This document shows, piece after piece, positions 24,117 through 60,533 of a stretch of DNA of 64,000 nucleotides. The position numbers were made by a program, and so were the translations under genes. Below the pieces are notes generated by a model that made no database searches, was not told the origin of the DNA, and saw only the letters and a program-made list of their open reading frames with translations. The stretch is from an uncultured virus (IMG/VR IMGVR_UViG_3300034157_000062). Taxonomy: Duplodnaviria > Heunggongvirae > Uroviricota > Caudoviricetes. The DNA lies in the IMG/VR virus record IMGVR_UViG_3300034157_000062; one strand, written 5' to 3'. The stretch's first letter is position 1. Each line of letters begins with the position of its first letter.

Positions 24117-24707
24117 ATGAAAAATAAGAATTTTGAATTTGATGTTTTTTTTAAATTTTTACAAGATTATTTTGGATTAGATATGACAACAGGCACATCT
24201 AGATACTATCCGATTAATAAGTTGATGACGATTCATTACAATTTTGGTTCATCTCGAATAGTTACCTTGGATTTTAAATTTAATAAGAATATTGATGATG
24301 TTATTGTCGATATTAGAATCCCTATTGATTATAATTTTAATCAAGCTAATGGTGCTAATTTTAATGGAATAGAAATTCAAGAAAAAATTAGTGAAGCCAT
24401 TCATTATTATTCAGCCTTTAAAAAAATTGTTGATGTTTCGGAAGAATATGAACCTTATTTAAATATTAGTTTCATAGCGAAACAATGTATAGATGAGAAA
24501 AAGCATGTATCTTATCAAATATCACCCGTTAATTATAATTTTGAAATGACGTATAATGATAAGAAAACAGGTAGGGAAGATAATTCTAAAAATTTTATTA
24601 AATTTGTAGACGGTTATTTAGAATTTTATTTTAAAGAAAAAGATTTAGATATTTCTGATGTCAATTATCAGTATAAAATAGACTTATATAGTATGATGGA
24701 GATTTGA
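24117..24707 (+). CDS. hypothetical protein, paralog of ORF 23513; Met(-4) motif
   Basis: ends IDLYSMMEI. Confidence 0.75.
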   Translation: MKNKNFEFDVFFKFLQDYFGLDMTTGTSRYYPINKLMTIHYNFGSSRIVTLDFKFNKNIDDVIVDIRIPIDYNFNQANGANFNGIEIQEKISEAIHYYSAFKKIVDVSEEYEPYLNISFIAKQCIDEKKHVSYQISPVNYNFEMTYNDKKTGREDNSKNFIKFVDGYLEFYFKEKDLDISDVNYQYKIDLYSMMEI

Positions 24708-29988: not shown

Positions 29989-30088
29989 TTTAATAAGTTA
30001 AAAATAGGATAGATCGAAAAACAACAAAGTCAATAGCAAAAATATAAAAAATTGCTTAATAAAGGCAAAAATTTAAAAATATTTTCAT

Positions 30089-30517
30089 TTAACCCCAACT
30101 GAAATAATCAAAACATAATTTATTGTTTTCATCTAATCTTGCCTCCCTGTCTAAAAACTCTTCAAAGTCGTAATACTGGATATCGACTGAATCAGTTATT
30201 GGATCACCGGAATATATAATGGTACCGTAACTACCATCATTAATAGAGCGAGTATCTATTATTAATCGGTCATTGGTGCTGTTGGTATAAACAACCACTA
30301 AATTTTTACGAATAGCGTCAGTGCTGTCATCAATATCAATATTGAAATCATTACCATTACCTAACTCTTCTAATGCAAGCTATTTACCAGAACCTTTATC
30401 ATTTGAATGTTCGACACCTTCAAAATCTTTTATAAATTTAACATAAGACATAGGCAATTTCAGACCTAATCGTTTTTCAGCTAACTTAACACGTTTAGCA
30501 AACGTTAATTTCTCCAT
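30089..30517 (-). pseudogene. SMI1/KNR4-family gene interrupted by one in-frame TAG
   Basis: MEKLTFAKRVKLAEKRLGLKLPMSYVKFI...GK*LALEEL continues in frame into ORF 30089-30298; TAG at 30380-30382. Confidence 0.7.
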
Positions 30518-35279: not shown

Positions 35280-35738
35280 TCAATCAGTTTCCTCTTCAAT
35301 CACTTCAATGACTTTTTCCATAAAGAATGTTAAATCGCAGATTAATGCATTTTTGTAGTTGTCATCTTCCATATTGACAATCTCATGAATAGAATCAACA
35401 ACTGCAACAAATAACGGCTCGTTTTCTTCGTATTTTTTTATTACAAACGATGTCTGTGCATTAAAGATGTCAACAGCACTTTCGCCAAGGTAAGGTTTTA
35501 AATCTTTAAAGTAATTTGTTATCTGAGTGATAGTGGTCATTTCTTCAAAACTATCAAATTCACACAGCTCATAAAGGTTGTTCAAATAATGATCCAGTAT
35601 TTCGTCTACTTTTTCAATTGAAGTGTTGTTGATTAATTCAATCATGCCATGTCGTAATCGTTCAGCATCTTTTGAGCAGATATCACCTAGTTTATAGCTT
35701 TTAACTTTCTTAATTAGAAGATCTTTAATATTAGACAT
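35280..35738 (-). CDS. acidic hypothetical protein
   Basis: 152 aa, GAGGTG RBS. Confidence 0.7.
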   Translation of the reverse strand: MSNIKDLLIKKVKSYKLGDICSKDAERLRHGMIELINNTSIEKVDEILDHYLNNLYELCEFDSFEEMTTITQITNYFKDLKPYLGESAVDIFNAQTSFVIKKYEENEPLFVAVVDSIHEIVNMEDDNYKNALICDLTFFMEKVIEVIEEETD

Positions 35739-35842
35739 GACTGCACCTCATTATGAGACATTATTCTACAATAACAGAGTATAAAAGTCAATTTAATACA
35801 ATACAGAGCCTAAAATAAATATCATAATATTAAAAGAAAAGC

Positions 35843-35871
35843 TTGATTAAATGTATAAAATACCGTATACT
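35843..35871 (+). promoter_or_regulatory. sigma70 promoter of proS leader
   Basis: TTGATT-17 nt-TATACT. Confidence 0.65.
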
Positions 35872-35896
35872 AGGTCAATACATAGGAAATCATAAA

Positions 35897-35959
35897 ATGA
35901 AAACTAATATTGCATTATTCAAAACTATTCGACCTCTACCGCTCATGATAGGCGGCTAA
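35897..35959 (+). CDS. proS leader peptide MKTNIALFKTIRPLPLMIGG
   Basis: AGGA RBS; Pro codons CCT and CCG; followed by attenuator hairpins. Confidence 0.75.
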   Translation: MKTNIALFKTIRPLPLMIGG

Positions 35960-36009
35960 GACTCTATTTGCTTCTAAATTGACCTTAACGCCTATTATGG
36001 GCGTTTTTT
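35939..36009 (+). promoter_or_regulatory. transcription attenuator upstream of proS
   Basis: terminator AACGCCTA-TTA-TGGGCGTT-TTTT (35987-36009); its 5' arm CGCCTAT is complementary to leader ATAGGCG; CCGC/GCGG upstream hairpin. Confidence 0.75.
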
Positions 36010-36069
36010 ATTGCTCAAAATAAACGATTACAACACAATAAAATAAATCAATTTAAGAGGATACATATC

Positions 36070-37200
36070 ATGAAATTTTCAAACATATTTTTTAACAACA
36101 GTTCTTTCGCTAAAGACAACACATCATTGAACTTGGTAGACTTAACAAAGAAAGCGTGCTTCTTTAACCAAGATTCATCTGGGATTTATTCAACGTTGTC
36201 ATTAGGCTATATCTTAGAGAAGAAGATAGAACGCATCATCGAAGAAGAATTATCAGAGATAGGTTTTTCACAAATGCGTTTAAGTTTAATTCAAGACGCT
36301 GATTTGTGGAAAGAAACGGGCCGATATGATCAATACGGTGAAGAACTATTCAAATTAAAAAACAGGGCTGGAAAAGAACTTGTTTTGAGTGCTACTTGTG
36401 AAGAATCCATCACGAACATTGTAAAGTCTTATTACAATTTCACTAAAACTAATTTGAAGATGTTCCAAATAGGCAATAAGTATAGAGATGAGTTAAGAGC
36501 TAAGTCTGGGTTAGTACGTGGCCGTGAGTTCTTAATGTCAGATGCTTATCATTTCTCTAACAGTAAAGAGAATATTGTCACAACTTACAATGAAGTCAGA
36601 GAGGCTTACACCAGAATATTTAGCCGTTTAGGTTTAGAGTTTCACATTCAAGGATCAGATGTAGGAGAAATGGGTGGATTAGCTTCCGAAGAATTCCGTT
36701 GCATTAGCGAATTTGGTGAAGACATTGGTGAAGATGGCAGTAAGAACCTTGAAATAGGTCACATCTTTAACTTGGGCACTCACTACTCTGAGAAAATGGG
36801 TTTGTTGGATAATATTAAGCAACACGTTAATATGGCTTGCTTTGGTATTGGTGTATCCAGAACATTGATGGCTTTGTTAGAGAAACAGAGAGATGACAAA
36901 GGTTTCTTTGGTACTGCAGCATTCAATACCTTTGATTACATTATCACAGCCATTGATTATGAGAAGAATAAAGAAGTTGCTGACTCTATTTATCAATCAT
37001 TAAAGAAACAAGGCTATACTGTGTTATTAGATGATAGAAATGTATCGGCTGGTAATAAGTTCAATGACAGTGAATTGATTGGCGTTAGTAATAGAATTAT
37101 TGTCAGTAACAAAAGTATTATTGCCAACGAATACGAAGTTTTAAACAGAGAAACAAATGTTGCGAAAACAGTGAGCCTTGAAACGTTAAAAACATTGTAA
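36070..37200 (+). CDS. proS: prolyl-tRNA synthetase, short form without INS editing domain
   Basis: LWKETGRY, ATCEE, KYRDELR...GREFLMSDAY, LEIGHIF, FGIGVSR, LLDDR anticodon-binding domain. Confidence 0.92.
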   Translation: MKFSNIFFNNSSFAKDNTSLNLVDLTKKACFFNQDSSGIYSTLSLGYILEKKIERIIEEELSEIGFSQMRLSLIQDADLWKETGRYDQYGEELFKLKNRAGKELVLSATCEESITNIVKSYYNFTKTNLKMFQIGNKYRDELRAKSGLVRGREFLMSDAYHFSNSKENIVTTYNEVREAYTRIFSRLGLEFHIQGSDVGEMGGLASEEFRCISEFGEDIGEDGSKNLEIGHIFNLGTHYSEKMGLLDNIKQHVNMACFGIGVSRTLMALLEKQRDDKGFFGTAAFNTFDYIITAIDYEKNKEVADSIYQSLKKQGYTVLLDDRNVSAGNKFNDSELIGVSNRIIVSNKSIIANEYEVLNRETNVAKTVSLETLKTL

Positions 37201-37261
37201 TAGTGACGGATAGATAAACAAAAACCAGCTTAGGCTGGTTTTGTTATGTCAAATAATACTT

Positions 37262-37981
37262 TTACAACCTATGTAAGAAGGTAAGTTTTTCTGATGATAG
37301 TTGTTGTTTTGATTCTTTTTGGTATGCCAATGCATAGGTTTTGAAAGTATCATATTCTTCCAGTGTGACATAATTATCTTTTCTGATTATTTTAAACTGG
37401 TTAACCAGTTCTGGTATTCCGATTTCATTAACAAGAGCCATTTTATCTATCATTGTATTTGCGGAGAGTCCTTCTACTTTTTTATTTACAATGTCTCTGC
37501 TACCTTTTGGATAATATGCATTCAGTGTAGCGTAATCTTTATTATCAATTGCGGATCTTAAAGCCTTCCCTTCTGTTGAGTTTTGAAAGTATATATTAGC
37601 TTCATTTAGCTTTTCATATTTTTCATTAAATTCATTTTTAACATAGTTTTCGGATGAAGTTGAGTGTAGCATTGCGATTACTAAGAATGTTGGCACGGAG
37701 CAAAAAAATATACCTAATATTTTTTTAGTGTTTGTATTAAAAAAATCATGGATAAACACTGGAATCATATAGAAAATCATTAATAACATTGATAATCCGA
37801 ATACAATAACAGTATGGTCATTATACATCGCTATTTGTGATGACATTGCTGTATCTTGTACATATATCATCAGATGATGCGGTAAAAAATAAAATAATGC
37901 ATATCCAAAAATTATTAAAATAGCTATTCCACCTAGGACACCATTATTAAAAATGGCAATATCAACCAATAAATCAAACAT
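37262..37981 (-). CDS. membrane protein (three N-terminal TM segments)
   Basis: hydrophobic N-terminal 105 aa; AGGAG RBS. Confidence 0.7.
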   Translation of the reverse strand: MFDLLVDIAIFNNGVLGGIAILIIFGYALFYFLPHHLMIYVQDTAMSSQIAMYNDHTVIVFGLSMLLMIFYMIPVFIHDFFNTNTKKILGIFFCSVPTFLVIAMLHSTSSENYVKNEFNEKYEKLNEANIYFQNSTEGKALRSAIDNKDYATLNAYYPKGSRDIVNKKVEGLSANTMIDKMALVNEIGIPELVNQFKIIRKDNYVTLEEYDTFKTYALAYQKESKQQLSSEKLTFLHRL

Positions 37982-38046
37982 AATAAAACTCCTTTTTATT
38001 ATGAAATTTTACAGTTATTAATGAGCAAGTCAAGAAAATTTTAATG

Positions 38047-38994
38047 TTATATTTTAAGCATTTTAATAACTGTAAGGTAATCCTTTAATGCTTCTGCTGA
38101 TTTAAATTCATCTGTTGTTCCATTGTTTTCTAATCCCACACAACTTTCAATGAAATATGCAAATATTGGGTTATAAAAAACTTCATAGTTCTTTATTAAA
38201 TAATCAAGTACTATATTCTTTTCATTTATCGAAAAATTATAATTTTTTAAGATTGTGGGTTGAATTTCTTCATTATCTTTATGTTGAAGTTTTAATTTTA
38301 AATCAGATTCGGTACAAAGATATATATTATCAGAAACACTAATTAAATGAATGAATACCTTGTCGATAGTTGTTTTATAGAGTTGAATCTGATGTTTAAT
38401 GCTATCGTTTAATTTAATAACATCATCACCGACAAAGCTATCTAAATTAGCTATATCTATTATATAGTAAGGATTATCTTGTAAATATAAAACGTTACTC
38501 TTCATTGTGACATTATTAATAAAATTATTTACTTTTAATAACCTAATCGTAGCATCTTGCCCCATCGTGGCACTACGAAGGCAATAAGAACCACACAATG
38601 GAATATTAATATTATCAATAAAGTCGTCATGAAAAAATTCTGTTTTTAAAATATTTTTAATATGACGATTAAAATAAGTGTTTAAGAATTTTATTCCATC
38701 TATCTCAATTGTTTTATAATTATTCTCAGGTACACAAATAGGATTTAAAGCAATTAAATTACCTGCTGATCTTACTCTAATGTTGATTCCATTTATACCT
38801 TTTGATAGATGGATATCACTTATGATGGGATGTTTTAATAGTATATAGCTTAAAACATCTTTAAGCTCTTCTTTTGTTTTTGTATTGTAGTAAGTCTTAT
38901 TTTTACAAATAAATTCAATAGCCGACATATCTGTTCCTAATAATTTTAGGAAACTATTTGCAACGGTCATCTCATGTTTTTCAATTGTTAACAT
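38047..38994 (-). CDS. paralog 4 of 4, PilT/GspE N-domain-like segment; Met(-4) motif
   Basis: SDIHLSKG...IRVR..G; ends YLTVIKMLKI. Confidence 0.7.
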   Translation of the reverse strand: MLTIEKHEMTVANSFLKLLGTDMSAIEFICKNKTYYNTKTKEELKDVLSYILLKHPIISDIHLSKGINGINIRVRSAGNLIALNPICVPENNYKTIEIDGIKFLNTYFNRHIKNILKTEFFHDDFIDNINIPLCGSYCLRSATMGQDATIRLLKVNNFINNVTMKSNVLYLQDNPYYIIDIANLDSFVGDDVIKLNDSIKHQIQLYKTTIDKVFIHLISVSDNIYLCTESDLKLKLQHKDNEEIQPTILKNYNFSINEKNIVLDYLIKNYEVFYNPIFAYFIESCVGLENNGTTDEFKSAEALKDYLTVIKMLKI

Positions 38995-39022
38995 ATTTAT
39001 TATTTCATCCTTATTATTCGAT

Positions 39023-39982
39023 TTATACTTTTATCATGTCAAGTGTTGTTAAATAATTTTTAAAGGCTTCTGGTGTCTTGAATTCTCCAATTAACGGGTC
39101 AAATTTTACTTGTGTCACATCTTCGATAAAAGCAGTAAAAATAGGGTCATAGAAATCGCTGTAATGTTTCAAGACATACTTTAAAATAGTTTTATTCATT
39201 TCTACCCTACCAATGCTGTAAGTATTAGGAATGATTACATTTATAGTATTGTTTCCCATGTATTCTAAAACAATTTTAATTTTGTTATATTTATAGATAT
39301 TTAATTTACCTTTAAATTTATTAAACATTTTATCAAGTTTACTTTCATAAAGATCGATTTTAGTTTGTATTTCAGGTGTGAATGTAACACCACTATTATG
39401 AATAAAACCTCCATTTATTAACTCAGCTTCGATAGTATAAATCGGATTTTCTTTTATTTGCAGTATATTATAATTAATATCAGTAGAGGTGTTGTTTTTA
39501 TTTTTAAGTATTCTTGTAATCCCATCATGTCCACAAGATGAGCTTCTTAGTCTATACATGCCAAACATTGGTATATCTAGATCACTATAAAAATCATAAG
39601 TTTGTCCAGTTTCCATTGAACTTGGACCTCTAATTTGTTCCAAAATATCTTTGAAGACATCTATAGCAAATGACTGGTTGTTAATCTTAGCTATTGCATA
39701 GTTATCATTAGCTGCAATGGTTATGGGGATGTCATGCATGTTACCATTTTTTCGAACTCTTAACCTTATTATTTTTTGATAAGAATCAAAGTTGAAATGA
39801 AGATCTGTTATATCCTTATAATTAACTAAAATATAAGTTAAAAAATGGTTAATAGTTTCTTTTGTTTTTGCATTGTAAAAAAAGTTATCTTTTTCAATAT
39901 AATCAATCGAACTTAAATCAGTATTAAGTAGACTTAAAAACTCATTTATTTTATCAAGATCATTGTTTTCAATTTTTAGCAT
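39023..39982 (-). CDS. paralog 3 of 4; Met(-4) motif
   Basis: TDLHF...RLRVRKNG; ends YLTTLDMIKV. Confidence 0.7.
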   Translation of the reverse strand: MLKIENNDLDKINEFLSLLNTDLSSIDYIEKDNFFYNAKTKETINHFLTYILVNYKDITDLHFNFDSYQKIIRLRVRKNGNMHDIPITIAANDNYAIAKINNQSFAIDVFKDILEQIRGPSSMETGQTYDFYSDLDIPMFGMYRLRSSSCGHDGITRILKNKNNTSTDINYNILQIKENPIYTIEAELINGGFIHNSGVTFTPEIQTKIDLYESKLDKMFNKFKGKLNIYKYNKIKIVLEYMGNNTINVIIPNTYSIGRVEMNKTILKYVLKHYSDFYDPIFTAFIEDVTQVKFDPLIGEFKTPEAFKNYLTTLDMIKV

Positions 39983-39999
39983 GACATCTATACCTCTTA

Positions 40000-40962
40000 T
40001 TATACTTTAATCATTTCTAGTGTTGTTAAGTAATTTTTGAAACATTCAGGATCTTTAAAATCTTCCAGTAATGAATCAGATTTTATTTCAGTGATGGTTT
40101 CTATCAGAGTCTTAAATATAGGCTTATAAAAAGATTTGTAGTTTTCTTTTAAATAAGCTAATAAAATTGAGCGGCTTCCATTATCTGATTTCAAGTAATG
40201 TTCGTAGTTACCATAAACATCAACAGTTATCGATCCAAATTTATCATATTCTAAACCAATAGATAATTTATTAGTCATATAATAACTGGTTACTTCACAA
40301 TGAGCATGTAACTTGTTTGTTTCTTCAATATAAAAATAGATATCATCTTCAATTTTTTTAGGTAGTTTGAAATGTGAGTTTTCAATAATCAATCCATCTT
40401 TAATTTTTAAATCAATTTTATAGAGAAGATTTCCATCTAAATTTAACCAATTAATGTTTGTAGCATAGAAAGGAAGAATTGTTGGTATTTTTATTATTCT
40501 AAATGCCGTAGAACTCTCCATCATTGCACTTATTATTACATATAAACCAAAATCTGGAATATACACTATGTCAGACGTATTGTTATCATCTATTTTTTTT
40601 GATATTAATCTTTGAATGTGGTCTTTAAAAAAAACTGTTGAAAATGAGAGTTTATTAATTCTTGCTGTTTCGTAATTATCAAATTTGTTAATTTCTATAT
40701 CAGTGAGGTGCCATGCTCCCATTTCTCTATACATAACATTAATCTTATTGGTGTTGTTGGTTTTAATAAGCAGGTCGCTTGTGTTGTTATAATTTTTCAG
40801 CATATAACTTAAAAAATCATGATCGGCTGTTAATTCAGCAGTAGTATATAATTCGTTATTTTTAATCACGTAATCAATAGATGAAAAATCAGTAGATATG
40901 ATATTTAAAAATTTATTAATTCTGTCTAGCTGCGTATCATTAATTTTTATCATTTTAAGCAC
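40000..40962 (-). CDS. paralog 2 of 4; Met(-4) motif
   Basis: ends YLTTLEMIKV. Confidence 0.7.
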   Translation of the reverse strand: MLKMIKINDTQLDRINKFLNIISTDFSSIDYVIKNNELYTTAELTADHDFLSYMLKNYNNTSDLLIKTNNTNKINVMYREMGAWHLTDIEINKFDNYETARINKLSFSTVFFKDHIQRLISKKIDDNNTSDIVYIPDFGLYVIISAMMESSTAFRIIKIPTILPFYATNINWLNLDGNLLYKIDLKIKDGLIIENSHFKLPKKIEDDIYFYIEETNKLHAHCEVTSYYMTNKLSIGLEYDKFGSITVDVYGNYEHYLKSDNGSRSILLAYLKENYKSFYKPIFKTLIETITEIKSDSLLEDFKDPECFKNYLTTLEMIKV

Positions 40963-40982
40963 CTTTTTAATCTAAGTTTTTG

Positions 40983-41981
40983 TTATACTTTCATCATTTC
41001 TAGTGTTGTTAGGTAATTTTTTAAACAGTCGGGGTCTTTAAAATTTCCATGCAATGTATCTATTTTAGTTTGTGTGACAGTTTCTATCAGGTTTTTAAAA
41101 ATAGGGTTATAGAATATGTGACAATTTTTTTTGATGTACTCTAAAAAATATTTTTTACCATTACATATCATGAAAACTGTTTCGTAATCACCGTAGACAT
41201 TCAAATTTATGTTTTCAAATTTGTCGTATTCTAAACCAATAGATAATTGATCATTTTTATAATACGCATTTTTTATGTAATATTTTGTAGTGATAGATCC
41301 CTCTTTGCACAGGATTGAGAACAATTTATTAATTTCATTAATGTAACAATAGATATCATCTTCGACTTGTTTAGGTAACTTGAAATTATGGTTTTCAACA
41401 ATTAATCCATCGACTAACTTAACATCAGTTTTGTATATAGGATTTTCGTCTATATTTAACCAATGAACAGTGCTTTGATTCTGAATTTTATCAGGCGTTA
41501 ATTTCATTAATTTAAATACAGATTCAGTCCCCATAACACCACTTCTTATTCTGTATAAACCACACTCTGGAATAAAGGCTATTACCAATTCATCATCATT
41601 CTGATGGTGTTTAGTCGTTATTTTTGATACATAATCTCTAAAACAATCAGTTGAACATGTGATTTCTGCGTTTGTGGCTGTCGTATAATTATCGTCATGA
41701 CTAATTAAAAGGTCCAGTAAATTATTTTTTATTCCATGTTCACGGGCAAATAGATTAATTTTCCCTTCATTTTTTTTATGCATCAATATTATTTCATTAG
41801 TGTTAGGATAATTTTTCAAAACATAACTCATTAAGTCATAGTCAGGAGGAAGTCTTTTGTTTGGATAAAATACGTTATTTTTGACCACATAATCAATAGA
41901 TGACAAATTAGTCAATAATCTACCTAAAAACGTATTAATTCTGGTCATTTCGTTGTCTTCAATCTTGATCATTGAGTTCAC
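40983..41981 (-). CDS. paralog 1 of 4; Met(-4) motif
   Basis: ends YLTTLEMMKV. Confidence 0.7.
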   Translation of the reverse strand: MNSMIKIEDNEMTRINTFLGRLLTNLSSIDYVVKNNVFYPNKRLPPDYDLMSYVLKNYPNTNEIILMHKKNEGKINLFAREHGIKNNLLDLLISHDDNYTTATNAEITCSTDCFRDYVSKITTKHHQNDDELVIAFIPECGLYRIRSGVMGTESVFKLMKLTPDKIQNQSTVHWLNIDENPIYKTDVKLVDGLIVENHNFKLPKQVEDDIYCYINEINKLFSILCKEGSITTKYYIKNAYYKNDQLSIGLEYDKFENINLNVYGDYETVFMICNGKKYFLEYIKKNCHIFYNPIFKNLIETVTQTKIDTLHGNFKDPDCLKNYLTTLEMMKV

Positions 41982-42108
41982 CTTTAAAAGCTGTGATTTT
42001 ACTATTTATTTGAGTGTATGTCAAACAAATCTCTAACATATAGACATCTTTGATATTTATCAATTTAATGATAATATAAAAATACAATCAAAAATAGTAG
42101 GTGAAGCT

Positions 42109-42714
42109 ATGTTACACATTCATTTTCCAGTTCATATGAAACCATCATCCATCTATTGGTTGTCTTCATTGCAGCCATCAAATGACGTTAAAATTTATTT
42201 TGACAATATGGTTGCTGATATGAACAAGTTAGCCTATGCAAAAATAATTGATTCCATTTATAAAGTAGGCACTCATTTCAAACTTGATAAAAATGAAATC
42301 AAAAAACTTATGAAAAATGTTCATCGTGAGTTTGTTGGTGATTATATCGTAGACAACGAGAATGGACAGTGGAATATATTCAATGAATTTTACAGATTAG
42401 CAATTGATGAACCTATCAAAAGTTTTCACCTCATTCAAGATGACACTTATTTTAAATCGTTTAATGCGAAATGCCTTCTAAAATTTGATGAAAATTACAA
42501 ATTAATGGATGTTATCTTTCATTTATCTAAGCCAACTAACAATAAATTAAACATAATAGAGATTGTTTTTGATAGCGATTTTAATCTTGTAGCCTTATAC
42601 TTAGAAAAAATAAAATATAATAAACAGTCTACGAAAGTCAAAGAACTTATTAAGGATAAAAACTTAATGTCTTTAACACATGAACTTGCAGTGTGTGTGG
42701 AGTTTTTCAAATAA
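42109..42714 (+). CDS. hypothetical protein, possibly a shortened relative of ORFs 33132/34229
   Basis: KCLLKFD...FDSDFNL resembles KCDILFD...LDSNFNL. Confidence 0.6.
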   Translation: MLHIHFPVHMKPSSIYWLSSLQPSNDVKIYFDNMVADMNKLAYAKIIDSIYKVGTHFKLDKNEIKKLMKNVHREFVGDYIVDNENGQWNIFNEFYRLAIDEPIKSFHLIQDDTYFKSFNAKCLLKFDENYKLMDVIFHLSKPTNNKLNIIEIVFDSDFNLVALYLEKIKYNKQSTKVKELIKDKNLMSLTHELAVCVEFFK

Positions 42715-42786
42715 AATCCAGCGGGTTTCTATTTGGATTAAAATCAAAATTATGGTATATTGTAGTAAACAATTACTCATTCTATT

Positions 42787-43962
42787 ATGAAACAAATACT
42801 CATAGATACGTTGCTTAGTTTACATGAAACACACCCTTTTACATGTCCATATATCAACCCCCTTATCTTTCAAGGTAAAAACTGTTCAAGAGCTTATGAC
42901 ATTGACATAAGCTATAACCCAGAATCATTGCCTGTTTATTCAATGGATCTATTTGAAGTCGTTGATGGTTTAAACAAATGGGTAACTGGTGTAATTGCTA
43001 CCTATGAAAACTTACCTGAACGTGTTAAAGCTCTTAAAGCTGATTTAGAAATTGATTTAATGATAGAGAACATTCAACAGTTACTTGAATTTAGTGTTGA
43101 TATTGATTATCAGGAAAGAGATGTCAACAGAGTGATTGAACGTTGGGATGTGGCTCATAGAACATACAATGAACTTACACAAAAAATAACTGATAAAACC
43201 CGTGAGGTAGAGATAGCAGAATCTATGATAAGTGGATCAATATCAGATAATGATCTACATACTTACAGAGTCTCTGAACGTGATCGTAGTGCCAATGAAT
43301 TACAAAAATTAGAACATGAACTCTTTCTTCTTAATAGAGAATTTAGTGATGAGATAGTTCCTATATTTGAAATGGAAACTGAAACTTACACCCAATCACT
43401 AGAAGCACTAAGAACCAGAAATGATACATTAAGAGAAGAAACAAACGCATTGTTAAATTGTTTGATAATGAATTTTAAGAATGAACTAAATATTGAGCAA
43501 CCAAACGACTATTTGAATAAAAAATTCGGCATTAAAGACAGCTTAAGTGGTATTAAGACATTAAATATTGGATTACTTTATAACAACACACCCTTCACTG
43601 ATGATGACGATTCTTATGATAATGAATATGGAAAGACGTATTTTATAAAATTAGCAGACGACTTATATTCTAGAAATATCTTAACTCATACTGACAAGAT
43701 GGATTTCAAAGCTAAAATAAATCCATTTATGGTATTAAAAGATGATTATTTTATAAAGTATGGAATCGAAAAATCAGAATCACGAACACCCGAATTTCAG
43801 AAGAAGCTATTGTTAGATAAATTAAAGGAATATGGTTATCAAGTTGTTAGGTTTTATGAAACGATTGATGATTATAAATCAGATAAAGATAACTTTAAAA
43901 CAATTGAATTAAAAGATTGGGATAACAAAGTCAAACAGAAGAAAAAAATAAAGCCAGTCTGA
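42787..43962 (+). CDS. coiled-coil hypothetical protein with basic tail
   Basis: PFTCPYIN, LEALRTRNDTLR; ends KVKQKKKIKPV. Confidence 0.75.
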   Translation: MKQILIDTLLSLHETHPFTCPYINPLIFQGKNCSRAYDIDISYNPESLPVYSMDLFEVVDGLNKWVTGVIATYENLPERVKALKADLEIDLMIENIQQLLEFSVDIDYQERDVNRVIERWDVAHRTYNELTQKITDKTREVEIAESMISGSISDNDLHTYRVSERDRSANELQKLEHELFLLNREFSDEIVPIFEMETETYTQSLEALRTRNDTLREETNALLNCLIMNFKNELNIEQPNDYLNKKFGIKDSLSGIKTLNIGLLYNNTPFTDDDDSYDNEYGKTYFIKLADDLYSRNILTHTDKMDFKAKINPFMVLKDDYFIKYGIEKSESRTPEFQKKLLLDKLKEYGYQVVRFYETIDDYKSDKDNFKTIELKDWDNKVKQKKKIKPV

Positions 43963-43978
43963 ACTGGCTTTTCTTTTG

Positions 43979-44599
43979 TTAACTATTTTTCAATGTTCTG
44001 TTTTTCTCTGGGCGTGGTATTTTGACAAGATTGTGTTCTGGGTCAAGTGCTGCTTTTTCAGCTAACTCTTCCTTTTGTTTTCTCAACATAAAGATGAAAC
44101 TTTTAAACTTAGGTGATTCCAATACAGCCGAAAGCTCACTTTTAATTTCAACTACGCTTTTATCCAACATGGTATTGTCAACGTTTCCGAAGTCTTCAAC
44201 AGCTTGACCATCATTACCTGCAGTTTTCATATGTTCTTCAACACGTTCTTTGTAAGGACGGAGATCAGATGTGAATGCAAACACTTTCTTTTTCTGTGCT
44301 GCAGCATACCCCATTTCAAAAGCAGTACCCACATCAGTAGATGGTCCACGAAATGGTGACATGTTGACAATAAATAAATCTGCAGAATCCATTAAGTTGG
44401 TATTCTTTTCATAGATTTCTTGGGATATTTGACTGGGTGTATTATTCGTTGAAACTTCATTATCCAGTGGAATCAAAGCAACAATGCCATGTTTTTCACA
44501 AAGTAGACGTGTTACTTCAGCGTTAATCTTAGCGTCAGGGTGAAAGACATCAGGGCCAGCCATGTATGCTTTAATTACAATTTCATTCTTCATTGTCAT
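43979..44599 (-). CDS. nucleoside 2-deoxyribosyltransferase/nucleotide hydrolase family protein with extra basic tail
   Basis: YMAGPDVF, SPFRGPSTDVGTAFEMGYA, VEDFG..DNTM. Confidence 0.88.
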   Translation of the reverse strand: MTMKNEIVIKAYMAGPDVFHPDAKINAEVTRLLCEKHGIVALIPLDNEVSTNNTPSQISQEIYEKNTNLMDSADLFIVNMSPFRGPSTDVGTAFEMGYAAAQKKKVFAFTSDLRPYKERVEEHMKTAGNDGQAVEDFGNVDNTMLDKSVVEIKSELSAVLESPKFKSFIFMLRKQKEELAEKAALDPEHNLVKIPRPEKNRTLKNS

Positions 44600-44759
44600 T
44601 TGTTCCTCATTAGTTTCTATTAGTTAACTATATTATTATAATACAAAAGTGATAATTATACAATCTTTTATTTTTTGAATAATAATAAAGGATTGTTATT
44701 ATACTTGATAATCTTGACATTTTTTGATATTATTGAACATATACAAGGTATTATTATCT

Positions 44760-45398
44760 ATGAGCACTGACGCCAAACCGTATAAAATAAATAAAGCATT
44801 CAATTTCGATGAACGATTATTAGAAGAATTTTCAAAAGAATCCTCGATTCCATTGGTTAGACCTGTTGGTGTATTTCATCTTGCTATTAAATTAAAAGAA
44901 GATCAAGAACCTTGTGTTGATGGTATTGGTTATCCAGCTCTTATTTGTCGTTATATTTTGAAAGACTACATCAAAGAAGACTATGACGCCTACTTACAAA
45001 GTATTTTCGCTACAATGAAACGTTATGGTCATTATGTGAATATTCAGTTTCAACGCCAGACGAAAAAAACTATTAGCATTACCTTAGCTGATAATTATCG
45101 CTCAATTAAGGACATCACCGCTATTAGTTTTGATTATGATATACATTTACGCGACAAAAAAAACATTTACCCAGACGCTCAAGTGACCATTGTGTTTGAA
45201 GGTGAATCAATCTATGAGTTCAGTATTGATGAAAATAATGAACCATATATTAAAATGGTTGTTAACTATAATGATTTAGATGGTTTCTTTATTAAATTTA
45301 TTGAAGCGTATAAAAATAAGTTTGCACGAAAACTAGGTGTTCAACGATCAACCGAGACAGCCCAACTTAAAATATTAGTTGACATGGTTCTTTTTTAA
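44760..45398 (+). CDS. hypothetical protein, paralog of ORF 45463; Met(-4) motif
   Basis: shared YIKEDYD and NYNDLDGFF; ends LVDMVLF. Confidence 0.75.
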   Translation: MSTDAKPYKINKAFNFDERLLEEFSKESSIPLVRPVGVFHLAIKLKEDQEPCVDGIGYPALICRYILKDYIKEDYDAYLQSIFATMKRYGHYVNIQFQRQTKKTISITLADNYRSIKDITAISFDYDIHLRDKKNIYPDAQVTIVFEGESIYEFSIDENNEPYIKMVVNYNDLDGFFIKFIEAYKNKFARKLGVQRSTETAQLKILVDMVLF

Positions 45399-45462
45399 AG
45401 ATCGTCTTGATTTAATATCATTAATTTGTATAATAACTAGTCTACTATAAGGTGATATTAAA

Positions 45463-46134
45463 ATGACAAATGAAGTTAAAATACATGAAATAGACAATCT
45501 TTTAAACATTGATAAAAATATTTTAACAGCAATTTCTGAAGAGTCTTCTCATTTTATTCTGGATAATGTTGTTGAATTTTCTATGTTTAATACTAAACCT
45601 ATGGATAACTCACATTTAGCGATTACATTAAAAAACGATCAAGCTCCTTTTGTTTCTTATTTAGGAGATCCTTCTATTATTTCGCGTCACATATTAAAAC
45701 CTTATATAAAAGAAGATTATGATATACTTTTGCAAACCATTTTCAAGAAAATTAAAAATTATGGAAAATTTATTGGTATAGATTTTCAGAGATTTACAAA
45801 GATGAGGATGAATATCACACTGGCTGATGATTATCAATCTATTCAAGACATCGAATCTTTTGATTTAGTTTATATTATGCTAATAAAGACATATCAATAT
45901 TATCAAGTGAAAGCGGATATCAGTATTGTATTTAATGGAGAGTCTGTTTATGATTTTAAGTATACTCAAGGTGATTATGCAACACTTAAAATGGTGATTA
46001 ACTATAATGATTTAGATGGCTTCTTCATGAAATTTGCTGAATCCTATCGAGATGAAATTTCAAAAAAATTAGGAGTAGAACACTCAACCGATATGTGGAA
46101 AATGCTAGCACTGGCTGAAATGTTTGTTATCTAA
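45463..46134 (+). CDS. hypothetical protein, paralog of ORF 44760; Met(-4) motif
   Basis: ends LALAEMFVI. Confidence 0.75.
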   Translation: MTNEVKIHEIDNLLNIDKNILTAISEESSHFILDNVVEFSMFNTKPMDNSHLAITLKNDQAPFVSYLGDPSIISRHILKPYIKEDYDILLQTIFKKIKNYGKFIGIDFQRFTKMRMNITLADDYQSIQDIESFDLVYIMLIKTYQYYQVKADISIVFNGESVYDFKYTQGDYATLKMVINYNDLDGFFMKFAESYRDEISKKLGVEHSTDMWKMLALAEMFVI

Positions 46135-46141
46135 TAGATAC

Positions 46142-46167
46142 AAAAAAACCGTAAATGAATACGGTTA
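46142..46167 (-). terminator. intrinsic terminator of the tRNA operon
   Basis: minus strand AACCGTA-TTCATT-TACGGTT-TTTTT. Confidence 0.7.
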
Positions 46168-46182
46168 TTGATGATTACAAAT

Positions 46183-46266
46183 TGGTGCGGAAAGTGGGAC
46201 TCGAACCCACACGCCTCTCGGCACTGGCTTCTAAGACCAGCGTGTCTACCATTCCACCATTTCCGC
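46183..46266 (-). tRNA. tRNA-Leu(TAG)
   Basis: cloverleaf, CTGGT-CTTAGAA-GCCAG, long variable arm, A73, encoded CCA. Confidence 0.95.
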
Positions 46267-46323
46267 ATAGACATTAACACTTCTTTTAAATATAGTTTAA
46301 ATAAACGTTTATTTTGTAAGAAA

Positions 46324-46404
46324 GTATTGAAGCTGCCTAGGATTCGAACCTATATCTTCCAATAGCACTTTTCCGCATCTTGCTTAGGATGGCAACTCCA
46401 ATAC
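46324..46404 (-). ncRNA. tRNA-like element with shrunken arms
   Basis: 14-bp terminal stem, intact T arm TAGG-TTCGAAT-CCTA, reduced D/anticodon/variable hairpins, no CCA. Confidence 0.5.
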
Positions 46405-46409
46405 AAATC

Positions 46410-46495
46410 TGGTGCCCGAAGACGGATTCGAACCGTCACTCCCTCACGGGAAGGGGATTTTAAGTCCCCCGCGTCTACCATTTCGCCATTCGGGC
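46410..46495 (-). tRNA. tRNA-Leu(TAA)
   Basis: GGGGA-CTTAAAA-TCCCC anticodon arm, ACCA end. Confidence 0.95.
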
Positions 46496-46506
46496 ATAAA
46501 AATCAG

Positions 46507-46604
46507 TAATTCAATATTTTAGAATGCATTTCAGCAAGCGTGTCTACCACTCCACCACCCCGTGTAAACACGAGAAAAGGATTCGAACCTTCGATATTGA
46601 ATTA
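46507..46604 (-). ncRNA. circularly permuted tRNA-Leu-like module
   Basis: 11-bp closing stem; order T arm, loop-closed 7-bp acceptor stem, Leu-type D arm, mini anticodon hairpin. Confidence 0.75.
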
Positions 46605-46608
46605 AATC

Positions 46609-46693
46609 TGGTCCCCGGAGCCGGACTCGAACCGGCACGCCTTTCAGCGGGAGATTTTAAGTCTCCTGTGTCTACCAATTCCACCATCCGGGG
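46609..46693 (-). tRNA. tRNA-Leu(TAA)
   Basis: GGAGA-CTTAAAA-TCTCC, ACCA end. Confidence 0.95.
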
Positions 46694-46712
46694 ATAAACA
46701 CATGTATCAATC

Positions 46713-46796
46713 TGGTGCGTTAGGTGAGACTCGAACTCACAATCCTTTCGGCACTGGCTTCTTAGACCAGCGTGTATACCATTCCACCACTAACGC
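46713..46796 (-). tRNA. tRNA-Leu(AAG)
   Basis: CTGGT-CTAAGAA-GCCAG, ACCA end. Confidence 0.93.
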
Positions 46797-46804
46797 ATAA
46801 TTTG

Positions 46805-46961
46805 TTACTTAGAACAGGAGTCGAACCTGTACGTTATAGAAGGCTATGCCTGTGTCTACCAATTCCACGACCTAATCATTTCTGCTTAGGGAAGGATTCG
46901 AACCTTCATCTATAACAAGAAGCTAGGCTTCTCGTGTCTACCACTTTCACCATCTAAGTAA
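46805..46961 (-). ncRNA. double tRNA-like RNA (permuted tRNA nested in the variable arm of a tRNA)
   Basis: two D arms and two T arms in order D-T-D-T with all connecting stems paired; see findings. Confidence 0.8.
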
Positions 46962-46963
46962 TC

Positions 46964-47047
46964 TGGTGCGGAAGGTGGGACTCGAACCCACACGCCTCAC
47001 GGCACTGGTTTCTAAGACCAGCAAGTCTACCATTTCATCACTTCCGC
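46964..47047 (-). tRNA. tRNA-Leu(TAG)
   Basis: CTGGT-CTTAGAA-ACCAG, ACCA end. Confidence 0.95.
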
Positions 47048-47069
47048 GTGATATTGCTTTACATCAATT

Positions 47070-47153
47070 TGGTGCCCCGAGGGAGACTCGAACTCCCACT
47101 CCTTTCGGAAGCGGATTTTGAATCCGCCGCGTCTACCATTCCGCCATCGGGGC
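47070..47153 (-). tRNA. tRNA-Leu(CAA)
   Basis: GCGGA-TTCAAAA-TCCGC, ACCA end. Confidence 0.95.
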
Positions 47154-47185
47154 TTATGTTGTAGCTACATTTGTTACTATAAATC

Positions 47186-47269
47186 TGGTGCGATTGGAGA
47201 GACTTGAACTCTCAATCCTTGCGGCATTGGCTTCTTAGACCAACGTGTATACCATTCCACCACAATCGC
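47186..47269 (-). tRNA. tRNA-Leu(AAG)
   Basis: TTGGT-CTAAGAA-GCCAA, ACCA end. Confidence 0.93.
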
Positions 47270-47272
47270 ATA

Positions 47273-47364
47273 TCTTAATGAGTAAAGGGACTCGAACCCT
47301 TACGCCTTTTAGGGGCATGTCTACGCTTAGACATTATGGCTACCATTACATCATACTCATAAGA
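47273..47364 (-). ncRNA. tRNA-Leu-like element with abnormal anticodon loop and no CCA
   Basis: acceptor ATGAGTA/TACTCAT, D arm, ATGTCTA-AGCG-TAGACAT, variable arm, AAGGG-TTCGAGT-CCCTT. Confidence 0.7.
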
Positions 47365-47455
47365 GGTTTGACTTTGATAATAGTGAGTTACAAATAATTA
47401 CTATGTTTCAAAGTTTCCAGTGGGAACCGGAGCAACCTAATTTTAAATCTTCATT

Positions 47456-47540
47456 TGGTGCGGAAGGTGAGACTTGAACTCACAATCAATTAAGAAACTG
47501 CTTTTGAGACAGTCGCGTTTACCAGTTTCGCCACATCCGC
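47456..47540 (-). tRNA. tRNA-Leu(CAA)
   Basis: ACTGT-CTCAAAA-GCAGT, ACCA end; one T-T mismatch in acceptor stem. Confidence 0.9.
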
Positions 47541-47592
47541 ATATTTATTTCTTGAAGCGTTTTTGTTTGTTTCCTTACTCTTCATGTTTAAC

Positions 47593-47621
47593 ATTCTATC
47601 AACTATATTCACCTTTGTCAA
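47593..47621 (-). promoter_or_regulatory. proximal sigma70 promoter of tRNA operon
   Basis: TTGACA-17 nt-TAGAAT with AT-rich upstream region. Confidence 0.75.
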
Positions 47622-47711
47622 TAACTATTTTAATTTATTTTAAAATATTTTCCTTTTGAATCAATGCTTTACGTTATTTATAGTTGTAGTTTATCCTAGA
47701 CATTCGCCCAT

Positions 47712-47808
47712 AAAAAAAGACCCTTTTGGGGTCCAGATGCGAAATGAGGCGATTGATTAGATTCGATTTCATCTGCATCTGGACAATCTAGTTGTCCAAA
47801 AATGCAGA
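47712..47808 (-). promoter_or_regulatory. attenuator (1:2 hairpin, 2:3 antiterminator, 3:4 terminator)
   Basis: 47792-47808 pairs with 47772-47786; 47775-47784 pairs perfectly (10 bp) with 47731-47740, overlapping terminator GACCC-CAAAA-GGGTC-T7 (47712-47733). Confidence 0.75.
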
Positions 47809-47818
47809 CAAATAGATG

Positions 47819-47881
47819 CTAGCCCAAGCTAAGTAATAGTGAGCATAAGAGTAGCAGTGATAATCGAATAGTTGTGAACAT
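47819..47881 (-). CDS. Leu-rich leader peptide MFTTIRLSLLLLCSLLLSLG
   Basis: GAGGA RBS; 9 of 20 codons are Leu: TTA x3, CTA x2, CTG, CTC, CTT, TTG. Confidence 0.85.
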   Translation of the reverse strand: MFTTIRLSLLLLCSLLLSLG

Positions 47882-47905
47882 GATTTCGTCCTCGTTAATG
47901 TTCAT

Positions 47906-47934
47906 ATTTTATCAAAGGTTCATTCCAAAGTCAA
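47906..47934 (-). promoter_or_regulatory. sigma70 promoter of the Leu leader
   Basis: TTGACT-17 nt-TAAAAT with extended -10 TG. Confidence 0.75.
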
Positions 47935-48010
47935 ATACTTTCGATACAGTTGACTTTAACTTATCAAGTTGTAAAGTATTCCAAATACTCAAACCTTAAA
48001 GGAGCTATAA

Positions 48011-59961: not shown

Positions 59962-60246
59962 CTGGTTGTGGCGATTTACTCATATGATGATAATCTGCTA
60001 TCTTGCAAAATACCCTAAATTGTCATTTCGGCATTGCAAAAAACTTGATTTATTTATCATTTGACTATAAATAAATAACATATACAAAAAACTCTATATA
60101 AAACAACTTTTTATTGAATATAGTATTTAAATATCATTTTATAAAAAACCTTAAAAATAGCGTTTTTTAAATGGCGTCAATAAAAAATCTTGCAAAATGC
60201 TACAAAATTTAGTTGACAGTAAAAAAAATCCTGTTAGTATGTAATT

Positions 60247-60533
60247 GTCAGCAAGGAAACAATAAGAATAACTGCATAAGAAATGATTTTGAGTGTGGGC
60301 TGGCAAGTGTAATGGACGACAATAAAAAAAGGAATAGTGATTCAAGGATGTAGCAATTATCAGGATGATAAGTTAAGGACTCACTCTATAAAGGACTGTT
60401 ACAAGGAAAAGGAAGACAAATTAGAATTAAAGATGGAATATGTTCTAGTTTATTTACAAGGATAGTAGTTTTGTTTTAATGGATGTATAAACCAAAGGAA
60501 TGATAAGAGAGTCGAAAGGCTCTCTTTTTTTTT
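60247..60533 (+). ncRNA. CsrB/RsmZ-type CsrA(RsmA)-sequestering sRNA
   Basis: 13 GGA motifs (12 in ANGGA context), hairpin TTATCA-GGA-TGATAA, TTGACA promoter at 60213, terminator 60505-60533. Confidence 0.8.

Follow-up and report, generated by a model that had tools for sequence, protein, structure and literature searches.

Leader-peptide attenuation is a textbook mode of control for amino-acid synthesis genes, as in the classical operon attenuators trpL, hisL, leuL and the multivalent ilv leaders of enterobacteria, and is known for a few aminoacyl-tRNA synthetase genes. T-box elements bind uncharged tRNA directly, and do not need an open reading frame (ORF). Synthetase genes described behind leaders include pheST, which is preceded by pheM, and trpS2, which is preceded by a Trp-Trp leader (bioRxiv 10.64898/2026.09.09.750475). 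A literature search conducted mostly at the abstract level, with supplements outside its scope, found no attenuator described before tRNA genes. Here, we analyse a 64,000-nucleotide (nt) stretch of the IMG/VR record IMGVR_UViG_3300034157_000062, referred to as the window, whose positions serve as coordinates below. The window carries two short ORFs, one with Pro codons upstream of a prolyl-tRNA synthetase (ProRS) gene and one rich in Leu codons upstream of a tRNA-Leu array. Both are likely to encode leader peptides of ribosome-mediated transcription attenuators, and to belong to a replicon-wide, codon-matched family through which all synthetase genes and isotype-sorted tRNA arrays would be gated, each by a leader written in the codons it serves. 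The outcome would be negative feedback on the supply of charged tRNA-Pro and tRNA-Leu.

The two units resemble classical attenuators in featuring a short ORF with cognate codons, mutually exclusive antiterminator and terminator helices and an intrinsic terminator before the genes. As in the trp model, a ribosome-stall model predicts termination in the Leu unit both when the leader is untranslated and when a ribosome has reached the stop codon, and several array leaders are multivalent, as are the ilv leaders. In contrast to classical attenuators, the targets are tRNA genes and synthetases rather than biosynthetic enzymes, a second promoter is located between attenuator and array, and the Leu leader samples all six Leu codons. 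As in pheM-pheST and trpS2, synthetase genes are found behind leaders carrying codons of their own amino acid. Unlike in those systems, the synthetases are ProRS, IleRS and a non-discriminating AspRS (with Asp and Asn codons in its leader), and synthetase leaders form one family with the leaders of tRNA arrays. Moreover, the switch of the synthetase leaders is compact and has two states; the 3' codons of the leader form an arm of the antiterminator, so that the untranslated state is predicted to read through. As with T-boxes, synthetase genes are predicted to be controlled by antitermination in response to tRNA charging, but an ORF is present, and searches with the T-box and with Rfam leader families (Leu, His, Thr, Trp) gave no match, either at gathering score in the window or at E values up to 10 in regions 35700-36100 and 47540-47960. 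The arrays also recall those of large phages and plasmids, being long, redundant and set in a replicon rich in ORFans. Here, in contrast, arrays are isotype-sorted, each being placed behind a codon-matched leader and a shared promoter cassette, an arrangement of which the literature search gave no description.

Comparisons relied on a related 181-kb IMG/VR record (G001), which is syntenic with the window, with identities of ~63-93% along the sequence comparison and a quoted overall identity of 75%. Identity between the two sequences reaches 91% in the Pro and 95% in the Leu leader region, compared with ~63-80% in most flanking DNA. Both units are complete, each comprising a promoter, a Shine-Dalgarno site, a short ORF, competing helices, a terminator and the cognate gene or genes. 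Anatomy, competing helices, covariation and codon matching were all computed from the DNA.

In the Pro unit, located on the plus strand, the P1 promoter (35843-35871) consists of -35 and -10 hexamers separated by a 17-nt spacer, with 9/12 consensus matches; both hexamers are kept in G001, although nearby upstream DNA differs. A Shine-Dalgarno-like site (35884-35888) is found 8 nt 5' of the start codon of the leader ORF (35897-35959), which consists of 20 codons (MKTNIALFKTIRPLPLMIGG, followed by TAA), with Pro at codons 13 and 15, in the sensor run PLPL, and a CGA Arg codon at position 12. The G001 ortholog is identical through codon 17. Leader codons 15-20 provide the 5' arm of an antiterminator (35940-35954), which is present in the minimum-free-energy fold. 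An 8-mer located after the stop codon (35963-35970) forms the 5' strand of a small hairpin within the loop of the antiterminator, and this hairpin is kept in G001 despite one base change in the 8-mer. The intrinsic terminator (35987-36011; -8.9 kcal/mol) is composed of a stem (35987-36005) and a T-run, which is 44 nt from the stop codon. Residues 35989-36003 are shared by the terminator region and the 3' arm of the antiterminator, whose helix (35940-35954/35989-36003) is far more stable than the terminator (-27.6 kcal/mol, z -6.66). All 15 pairs of this helix are formed both in the window and in G001, and all four arm substitutions that distinguish the two sequences make up two compensatory pairs, i.e. 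double changes. In a control in which the partner was slid by 1-3 columns, 30-53% of the cells were paired and no double change occurred. The predicted antiterminator is supported by these two compensatory changes.

The downstream ProRS gene (36070-37200) encodes a 376-amino-acid (aa) protein that matches the Pfam domains tRNA-synt_2b and HGTP_anticodon, and scores 338.2 bits against NCBIfam TIGR00409 (cutoff 306.7), matched in two stretches. The protein has no insertion (editing) domain. Its clade is made up of proteins of 370-385 aa, 50-71% identical, encoded on contigs of up to 1.36 Mb.

The response to translation was modelled by masking a ribosome footprint whose 3' edge lies 12 nt beyond the first base of the A-site codon, and folding the remaining RNA, in two variants in which either everything 5' of the ribosome or the footprint only was masked. 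In the Pro unit, the terminator probability is 0.00-0.01 with the A site at codons 1-13 and 0.92 from codon 15 on; at codon 14, it is 0.65 in the window and 0.09 in G001. Without a ribosome, the value is 0.00. We infer that the leader ORFs are translated and that stalling switches termination. The Pro unit would be a two-state switch, the default being the antiterminator formed by codons 15-20 with the whole terminator region. A ribosome proceeding beyond approximately codon 14 would melt the antiterminator, so that the terminator forms and ProRS is switched off. A ribosome held with Pro13 in the A site, or earlier, including at CGA-12, would leave the antiterminator in place, and ProRS would be transcribed.

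In the Leu unit, located on the minus strand, the P1 promoter (47906-47934) has an extended -10 element, with 10/12 consensus matches and a TG, and is kept in G001. A Shine-Dalgarno site (47889-47893) is found 7 nt 5' of the start codon of the leader ORF (47819-47881), which also has 20 codons (MFTTIRLSLLLLCSLLLSLG, followed by TAG). Nine of the 19 codons after the start are Leu codons, representing all six types, and all are readable by tRNAs of the array; the G001 leader differs in one codon, Cys13 to Ser. The stop codon and the terminator T-run are 100 nt apart, and five segments may be distinguished in the RNA beyond the stop. Segment 0 (47807-47818), which holds the 8-mer, lies directly 3' of the stop codon, within reach of a ribosome positioned there, and can pair with the 3' half of segment 1 (47787-47818; -8.2 kcal/mol, z -3.8). 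Hairpin 1:2, the anti-antiterminator (47772-47808; -17.6 kcal/mol, z -4.99), is present in the minimum-free-energy fold. Antiterminator 2:3 (47731-47784; -22.2 kcal/mol, z -5.22) covers 4/6 bases of the 5' arm of the intrinsic terminator 3:4 (47711-47734; -8.1 kcal/mol), which features a 7-T run. The summed energies are -30.4 kcal/mol for 0:1 plus 2:3 vs -25.7 for 1:2 plus 3:4; once segment 0 is masked, they are -22.2 vs -25.7 kcal/mol.

When all 5' RNA is masked, stalls anywhere from codon 1 to codon 18 of the Leu leader give terminator probabilities of 0.01-0.28, only codons 1 and 15 falling outside 0.01-0.08; the value is 0.90 once the ribosome has reached the stop codon and 0.88 when no ribosome is present. 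The unit may function as a relay of segments 0 to 4. A ribosome at TAG would cover segment 0, allowing hairpin 1:2 and terminator 3:4 to form, and transcription would stop. Stalling on Leu codons would free segment 0, favouring 0:1 and antiterminator 2:3, and P1 transcription would pass P2, the second promoter, into the tRNA-Leu array.

In the window, the frame stays open for ~40 codons beyond the TAG of the Leu leader (47819-47821), across the terminator; in G001, a 1-nt deletion closes it after 9 codons. TAG, which ends three of the nine leader types found in the window and its relatives (window 47819-47821, G001 and locus L142), is the rarest stop codon of the replicon (3/61 window genes, 16/179 G001 genes).

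The array (46183-47540, minus strand) is composed of 10 tRNA genes identified by ARAGORN, eight of which match the Rfam tRNA family at gathering score. Eight are tRNA-Leu genes with anticodons TAG, TAA, AAG and CAA, which together read all six Leu codons. The array is closed by a terminator placed at 46147-46166 by a terminator scan. P2 (47593-47621, minus strand) is located between the Leu terminator and the first tRNA gene, has an extended -10 with 11/12 consensus matches and a TG, and resides in a conserved cassette; its role is putative. The cassette, found by pattern scan before six arrays and in a variant form before a seventh, was detected in metagenome contigs at six loci on three contigs of 0.52, 0.68 and 1.86 Mb. 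The pattern was not matched in the genome contig collection; in viral contigs it hit five loci, three of which are unrelated, without tRNA, and were discarded. The cassette (47541-47720, minus strand, in the window; loci L138-L143) spans ~120-220 nt before every tRNA array, and includes a post-terminator spacer, an AT-rich upstream region, P2 itself and a leader that is transcribed. Even arrays of different isotype within one genome have this cassette in common.

Two array genes are unusual. The gene at 46882-46960 (minus strand) has a CTA anticodon, which would read amber, and is labelled Pyl by ARAGORN; it carries C, not U, before the anticodon, and in G001 the corresponding array position is occupied by a tRNA-Gln(TTG), whose anticodon stem-loop is different. 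The gene at 47277-47360 (minus strand), corresponding to G001 79232-79317 (95% identity), is tRNA-Leu-like, and its anticodon loop is oversized. Around half of the differences fall in this loop (3/6 bases), and the remainder is nearly unchanged. Comparable odd-loop genes are found in four other arrays of relatives.

Beyond Pro and Leu, relatives carry seven further leader types, for a total of nine, three before synthetase genes and six before tRNA arrays. G001 carries the Pro and Leu leaders and three more. These are an Asp/Asn leader (DNNDN; MTIRFIADNNDNFAQLSVGLSVA), followed by a terminator, before a non-discriminating AspRS that serves Asp and Asn tRNAs (NCBIfam, 427.8 bits, cutoff 353); an Ile leader (IIII; MKTLNTFVNSIIIIPKLPMS) before IleRS (643.8 bits, cutoff 621.4); and an Ala/Arg leader (RARA; MNIQLTIRARAIS) before an array of Ala, Arg(TCT/CCT) and Met tRNAs. 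Metagenome contigs carry a V/I/M/D leader (MNTLYTVVIVMDIMDIIDIQS) before Ile/Asp/Val/Met tRNAs, an S/Y leader (MKPTFKFSSSYYYSYSR) before Ser/Tyr tRNAs, a Q/P/W leader (MNTYIINIQQPQPQPQQWGWQPIA) before Pro/Trp/Gln tRNAs and, on the opposite strand of one locus, a REREER leader (MNMLVKSLREREERLS) before Arg(ACG)/Glu tRNAs.

Leaders and downstream genes match throughout. In a codon/anticodon matrix of six leaders and six arrays, tRNAs of the own array read 0.33-0.65 of the leader codons, those of other arrays at most 0.20, and the diagonal sum was reached by 1/720 permutations. The two Arg boxes are matched separately, AGA codons preceding tRNA-Arg(TCT/CCT) and CGA/CGT codons preceding tRNA-Arg(ACG). 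The orthologous V/I/M/D leaders of L138 and L142 differ by two substitutions, both synonymous. The original prediction had proposed a regulon over tRNAs and synthetases in which downstream genes match the amino acid enriched in the leader, and this proposal is supported by all nine leader types, each being written in codons served by the genes that follow. The distance from stop codon to T-run is 40-49 nt in synthetase-type leaders and 82-100 nt, followed by the P2 cassette, in array-type leaders. On these grounds, the Pro and Leu leaders are assigned to different classes.

Searches of viral contigs with AspRS as a single query and with an alignment of 31 ProRS sequences brought up no additional relative that carries a leader; three phage contigs of ~500 kb encode short ProRS proteins, 36-39% identical, without such a leader. 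Other small ORFs with Shine-Dalgarno sites, such as window 30085-30132 and a Cys-rich G001 ORF, were rejected, as they feature no terminator hairpin or cognate gene.

In the three synthetase leaders, the antiterminator survives in the stall model with the A site up to Pro13, Asn12 and Ile12, respectively, and is lost just after, so that the sensor codons are placed at the predicted switching boundary. For AspRS and IleRS of G001, this was seen in a kinetic version of the model, in which the terminator 5' arm is sequestered to Asn12 or Ile12 and freed just after.

Several results weigh against attenuation by leader translation as proposed here. Covariation in the Pro antiterminator comes from two sequences, and a column-shuffle control reached the observed value in 108/500 trials. 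The Pro leader contains two Pro codons in 20 (2/19 after the start), and the second, codon 15, is already beyond the switch point in the model. In the Leu unit, masking of the footprint only gives terminator probabilities of 0.07-0.20 at codons 8-12 and 18 and of 0.74-0.88 at codons 13-17 in the window, and of 0.92-0.95 for stalls at codons 8-18 in G001. The strong P2 sits between attenuator and tRNAs, and read-through may add little to P2 or interfere with it. In four other array leaders, the equilibrium terminator probability is 0.95-0.98 in every state, very stable terminators dominating the equilibrium; L140 alone departs from this, falling to 0.79-0.91 at Tyr codons when just the footprint is masked. 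In the kinetic version, these other array leaders show modest changes in the sequestration of the terminator 5' arm or, as in L140 and the Ala/Arg leader, none at all.

The Pro and Leu leaders had attracted attention as one scaffold with swapped sensor codons, and the features on which this idea was based are present in the window. Both ORFs (35897-35959, plus strand, and 47881-47819, minus strand) have 20 sense codons and end in GGC-stop. Both contain a 15-mer, identical at 14/15 positions, which encodes F-K-T-I-R in the Pro leader (35918-35932, plus strand) and F-T-T-I-R in the Leu leader (47878-47864, minus strand), ends in CGA and abuts the first Pro or Leu codon. The 8-mer starts 3 nt after the stop in the Pro unit and 2 nt after it in the Leu unit (47816-47809). 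The 15-mer is in frame in both ORFs but occupies codons 8-12 in the former and codons 2-6 in the latter; hence, the equal length of 20 codons is not the property of a common frame. In G001, both 15-mers are unchanged, and the Pro leader has an 8-mer with one change and ends in GGC-GTC-stop; thus, neither GGC-stop nor the exact 8-mer is a fixed feature.

The components of the motif differ in their chance levels. The 8-mer occurs six times in the window vs 5.27 expected, and 42/100 shuffles reached six copies; its frequency is at chance level, and its placement alone is notable. The 9-mer core of the 15-mer occurs three times vs 0.50 expected, three copies being reached in 1/100 shuffles; the third copy (24254-24262, minus strand) is antisense within a long ORF and has no leader features. 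G001 also has three exact copies, in the two leaders and at one site within a long ORF, and none in its further leaders, where the original prediction would have placed more. Allowing for one mismatch, no match between the Pro and Leu leader regions is longer than the 15-mer itself, and 1/500 mononucleotide shuffles reached this length. Among the 36 pairs of the nine leader types, one further pair reaches 15, with a match that falls within the terminator T-run. In viral contigs, the 15-mer pattern matched at least 118 loci. Among the matches listed, 28 loci have it in frame within ORFs no longer than 45 codons, and among those 28 only three are Pro or Leu leaders, all on a single relative contig, the others being judged by peptide alone.

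The scaffold idea stands in part. The T-I-R peptide is found in four of the nine leader types (Pro, Leu, Asp/Asn and Ala/Arg), encoded with single synonymous codon differences, and several leaders are alike in their M-K/N-T start and in their initiation regions. Outside T-I-R, the peptides of the four leaders are unrelated. The complete arrangement of F-x-T-I-R, sensor block, GGC-stop and 8-mer was expected in further leaders, where T-I-R alone recurs; GGC-stop and the 8-mer are absent from the other seven types, and the 20-codon length does not recur either. The Pro and Leu units also differ in architecture, one being a two-state switch with 44 nt between stop and T-run, the other a four-segment relay with 100 nt and P2. 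A long-range helix between the T-I-R codons and the linker, seen in the window Leu fold, was dropped, as it is not kept in the G001 fold. The shared 15-mer is best read as a putative remnant of common leader descent, kept because T-I-R or its Arg codon matters, and we read the recurrence of T-I-R in the same terms, as descent with selection on the tripeptide or on that codon.

A further explanation, compatible with attenuation, holds that T-I-R and its Arg codon are a working sensor or sensitiser, a common input besides the amino acid proper to each leader. Either the nascent T-I-R would slow peptidyl transfer, or CGA/CGT/AGA would report the supply of Arg-tRNA. T-I-R occurs in 4/9 types with synonymous differences in otherwise unrelated peptides, whereas arithmetic based on amino-acid shares predicts ~0.02 occurrences over 156 positions. 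In the model, a stall at CGA-12 keeps the Pro antiterminator as well as a stall at Pro13 does; CGA accounts for 14-15% of Arg codons, and the replicon family has its own tRNA-Arg(ACG) array behind a CGA/CGT leader. However, five of nine leader types do without T-I-R, the tripeptide is three codons ahead of the sensor block in the Asp/Asn leader, no arrest motif of T-I-R form came out of the analyses, its likeness to the I-R-A core of SecM being putative, and if the leaders are paralogous, the tripeptide could be a mere remnant. We consider a sensing role of this kind distinctly unlikely.

The similarity of the Pro and Leu leaders could also be coincidental, reflecting short AT-rich matches between unrelated small ORFs. 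The chance-level frequency of the 8-mer and the different codon positions of the motif in the two ORFs fit this explanation, and a one-mismatch match of 15 nt, expected at ~0.002 per pair, becomes 0.07 by simple arithmetic once all 36 pairs are considered, a marginal degree of surprise. Yet the shuffles described above reached this length once in 500, in each ORF the match keeps the reading frame and is followed directly by the first sensor codon, G001 preserves both copies unaltered with flanks that have diverged by 20-35%, and T-I-R recurs in two further leaders. Coincidence is improbable on this evidence.

We give equally little credence to the possibility that the Leu ORF and its terminator are a separate small gene or an insulator, the array being transcribed from P2 alone. 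P2 is strong by consensus (11/12, extended -10), lies in a conserved cassette and is well placed to drive the tRNAs, and the Leu peptide has the hydrophobic character of a small membrane peptide. However, leaders fit the isotypes of their arrays in 6/6 cases (1/720 permutations), and an unrelated small gene would not vary in composition array by array; the encoded peptides range from hydrophobic to charged (e.g. RERE), and competing 1:2, 2:3 and 3:4 helices would be purposeless in a plain terminator. Direct binding of tRNA or a protein by the RNA, in T-box or TRAP fashion and with incidental ORFs, is very improbable. Many bacterial synthetase genes are under T-box antitermination, and the distant viral ProRS locus L235 has an upstream sequence that looks T-box-like by eye. 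However, no Rfam family but tRNA is matched in the window at gathering score, and neither leader region has a relevant match at E values up to 10; the ORFs come with Shine-Dalgarno sites and conserved frames, and amino-acid runs such as IIII or YYY serve no function in a T-box.

Shine-Dalgarno sites are found at -18 to -4 in 41/60 window genes and 129/179 G001 genes, compared with counts of 2-15 at control positions (2 and 4 in the window). Because such sites are widespread in both sequences, expression of the replicon is of the bacterial type. IMG/VR lists G001 as a provirus with an estimated completeness of 58%; its leaders and arrays are also present on a 1.86-Mb metagenome contig. Pfam families were matched by 10/64 window ORFs and by 33/115 further G001 ORFs, and PHROGs by 3/65 proteins, with no structural protein among them. 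A near-identity search of plasmid and phage records with the window gave matches of tRNA size only, and a protein-atlas look-up of a 757-aa ORFan gave no usable result. The closest relatives of the ClpB-like protein among species genomes, mostly Proteobacteria, are ~40-47% identical.

The replicon is rich in ORFans, and its relatives are found on contigs of 0.5-1.86 Mb. Recognisable genes encode UvdE, Fpg, MGMT, asparagine synthase, GAPDH, thioredoxin reductase, RtcB, PTH2, a Ser/Thr kinase, a NIF-type phosphatase and Sir2, a set which resembles the gene sets of giant viruses. Four adjacent same-strand ORFs in the window (38047-41981, minus strand) and seven in G001 (103613-109381) are of similar length within each run (315-332 and 248-285 aa), have no family match and are probably paralog arrays. 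In an 870-nt gene-free stretch of the window, a consensus-like promoter is followed ~290 nt further on by a terminator that is kept in G001 (~60213-60530, plus strand). This element, which has no Rfam match at gathering score, is a possible small RNA.

In its broadest form, the interpretation of these leaders as attenuators would describe a codon-resolved homeostat for the whole decoding apparatus, hosted by a very large ORFan-rich replicon in which all arrays and synthetases are gated, the two Arg boxes have separate sensors and T-I-R acts at the first sensor codon as a nascent-peptide or Arg-codon sensitivity element. So complete a scheme is tentative, and on balance we think it unlikely. 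Judging from the sequence, the replicon probably makes each decoding part when ribosomes read the matching codons slowly. The logic of leader attenuation appears to control tRNA genes themselves, and to do so systematically. If true, the replicon would gauge the decoding speed of ribosomes per codon class, topping up only the tRNAs or charging enzymes that are missing. This would bear on why large phages and plasmids carry tRNA arrays, on how such replicons handle a depletion of host tRNAs or a codon mismatch, and on how arrays become isotype-sorted. The leaders may also represent a natural set of orthogonal, amino-acid-specific sensors.

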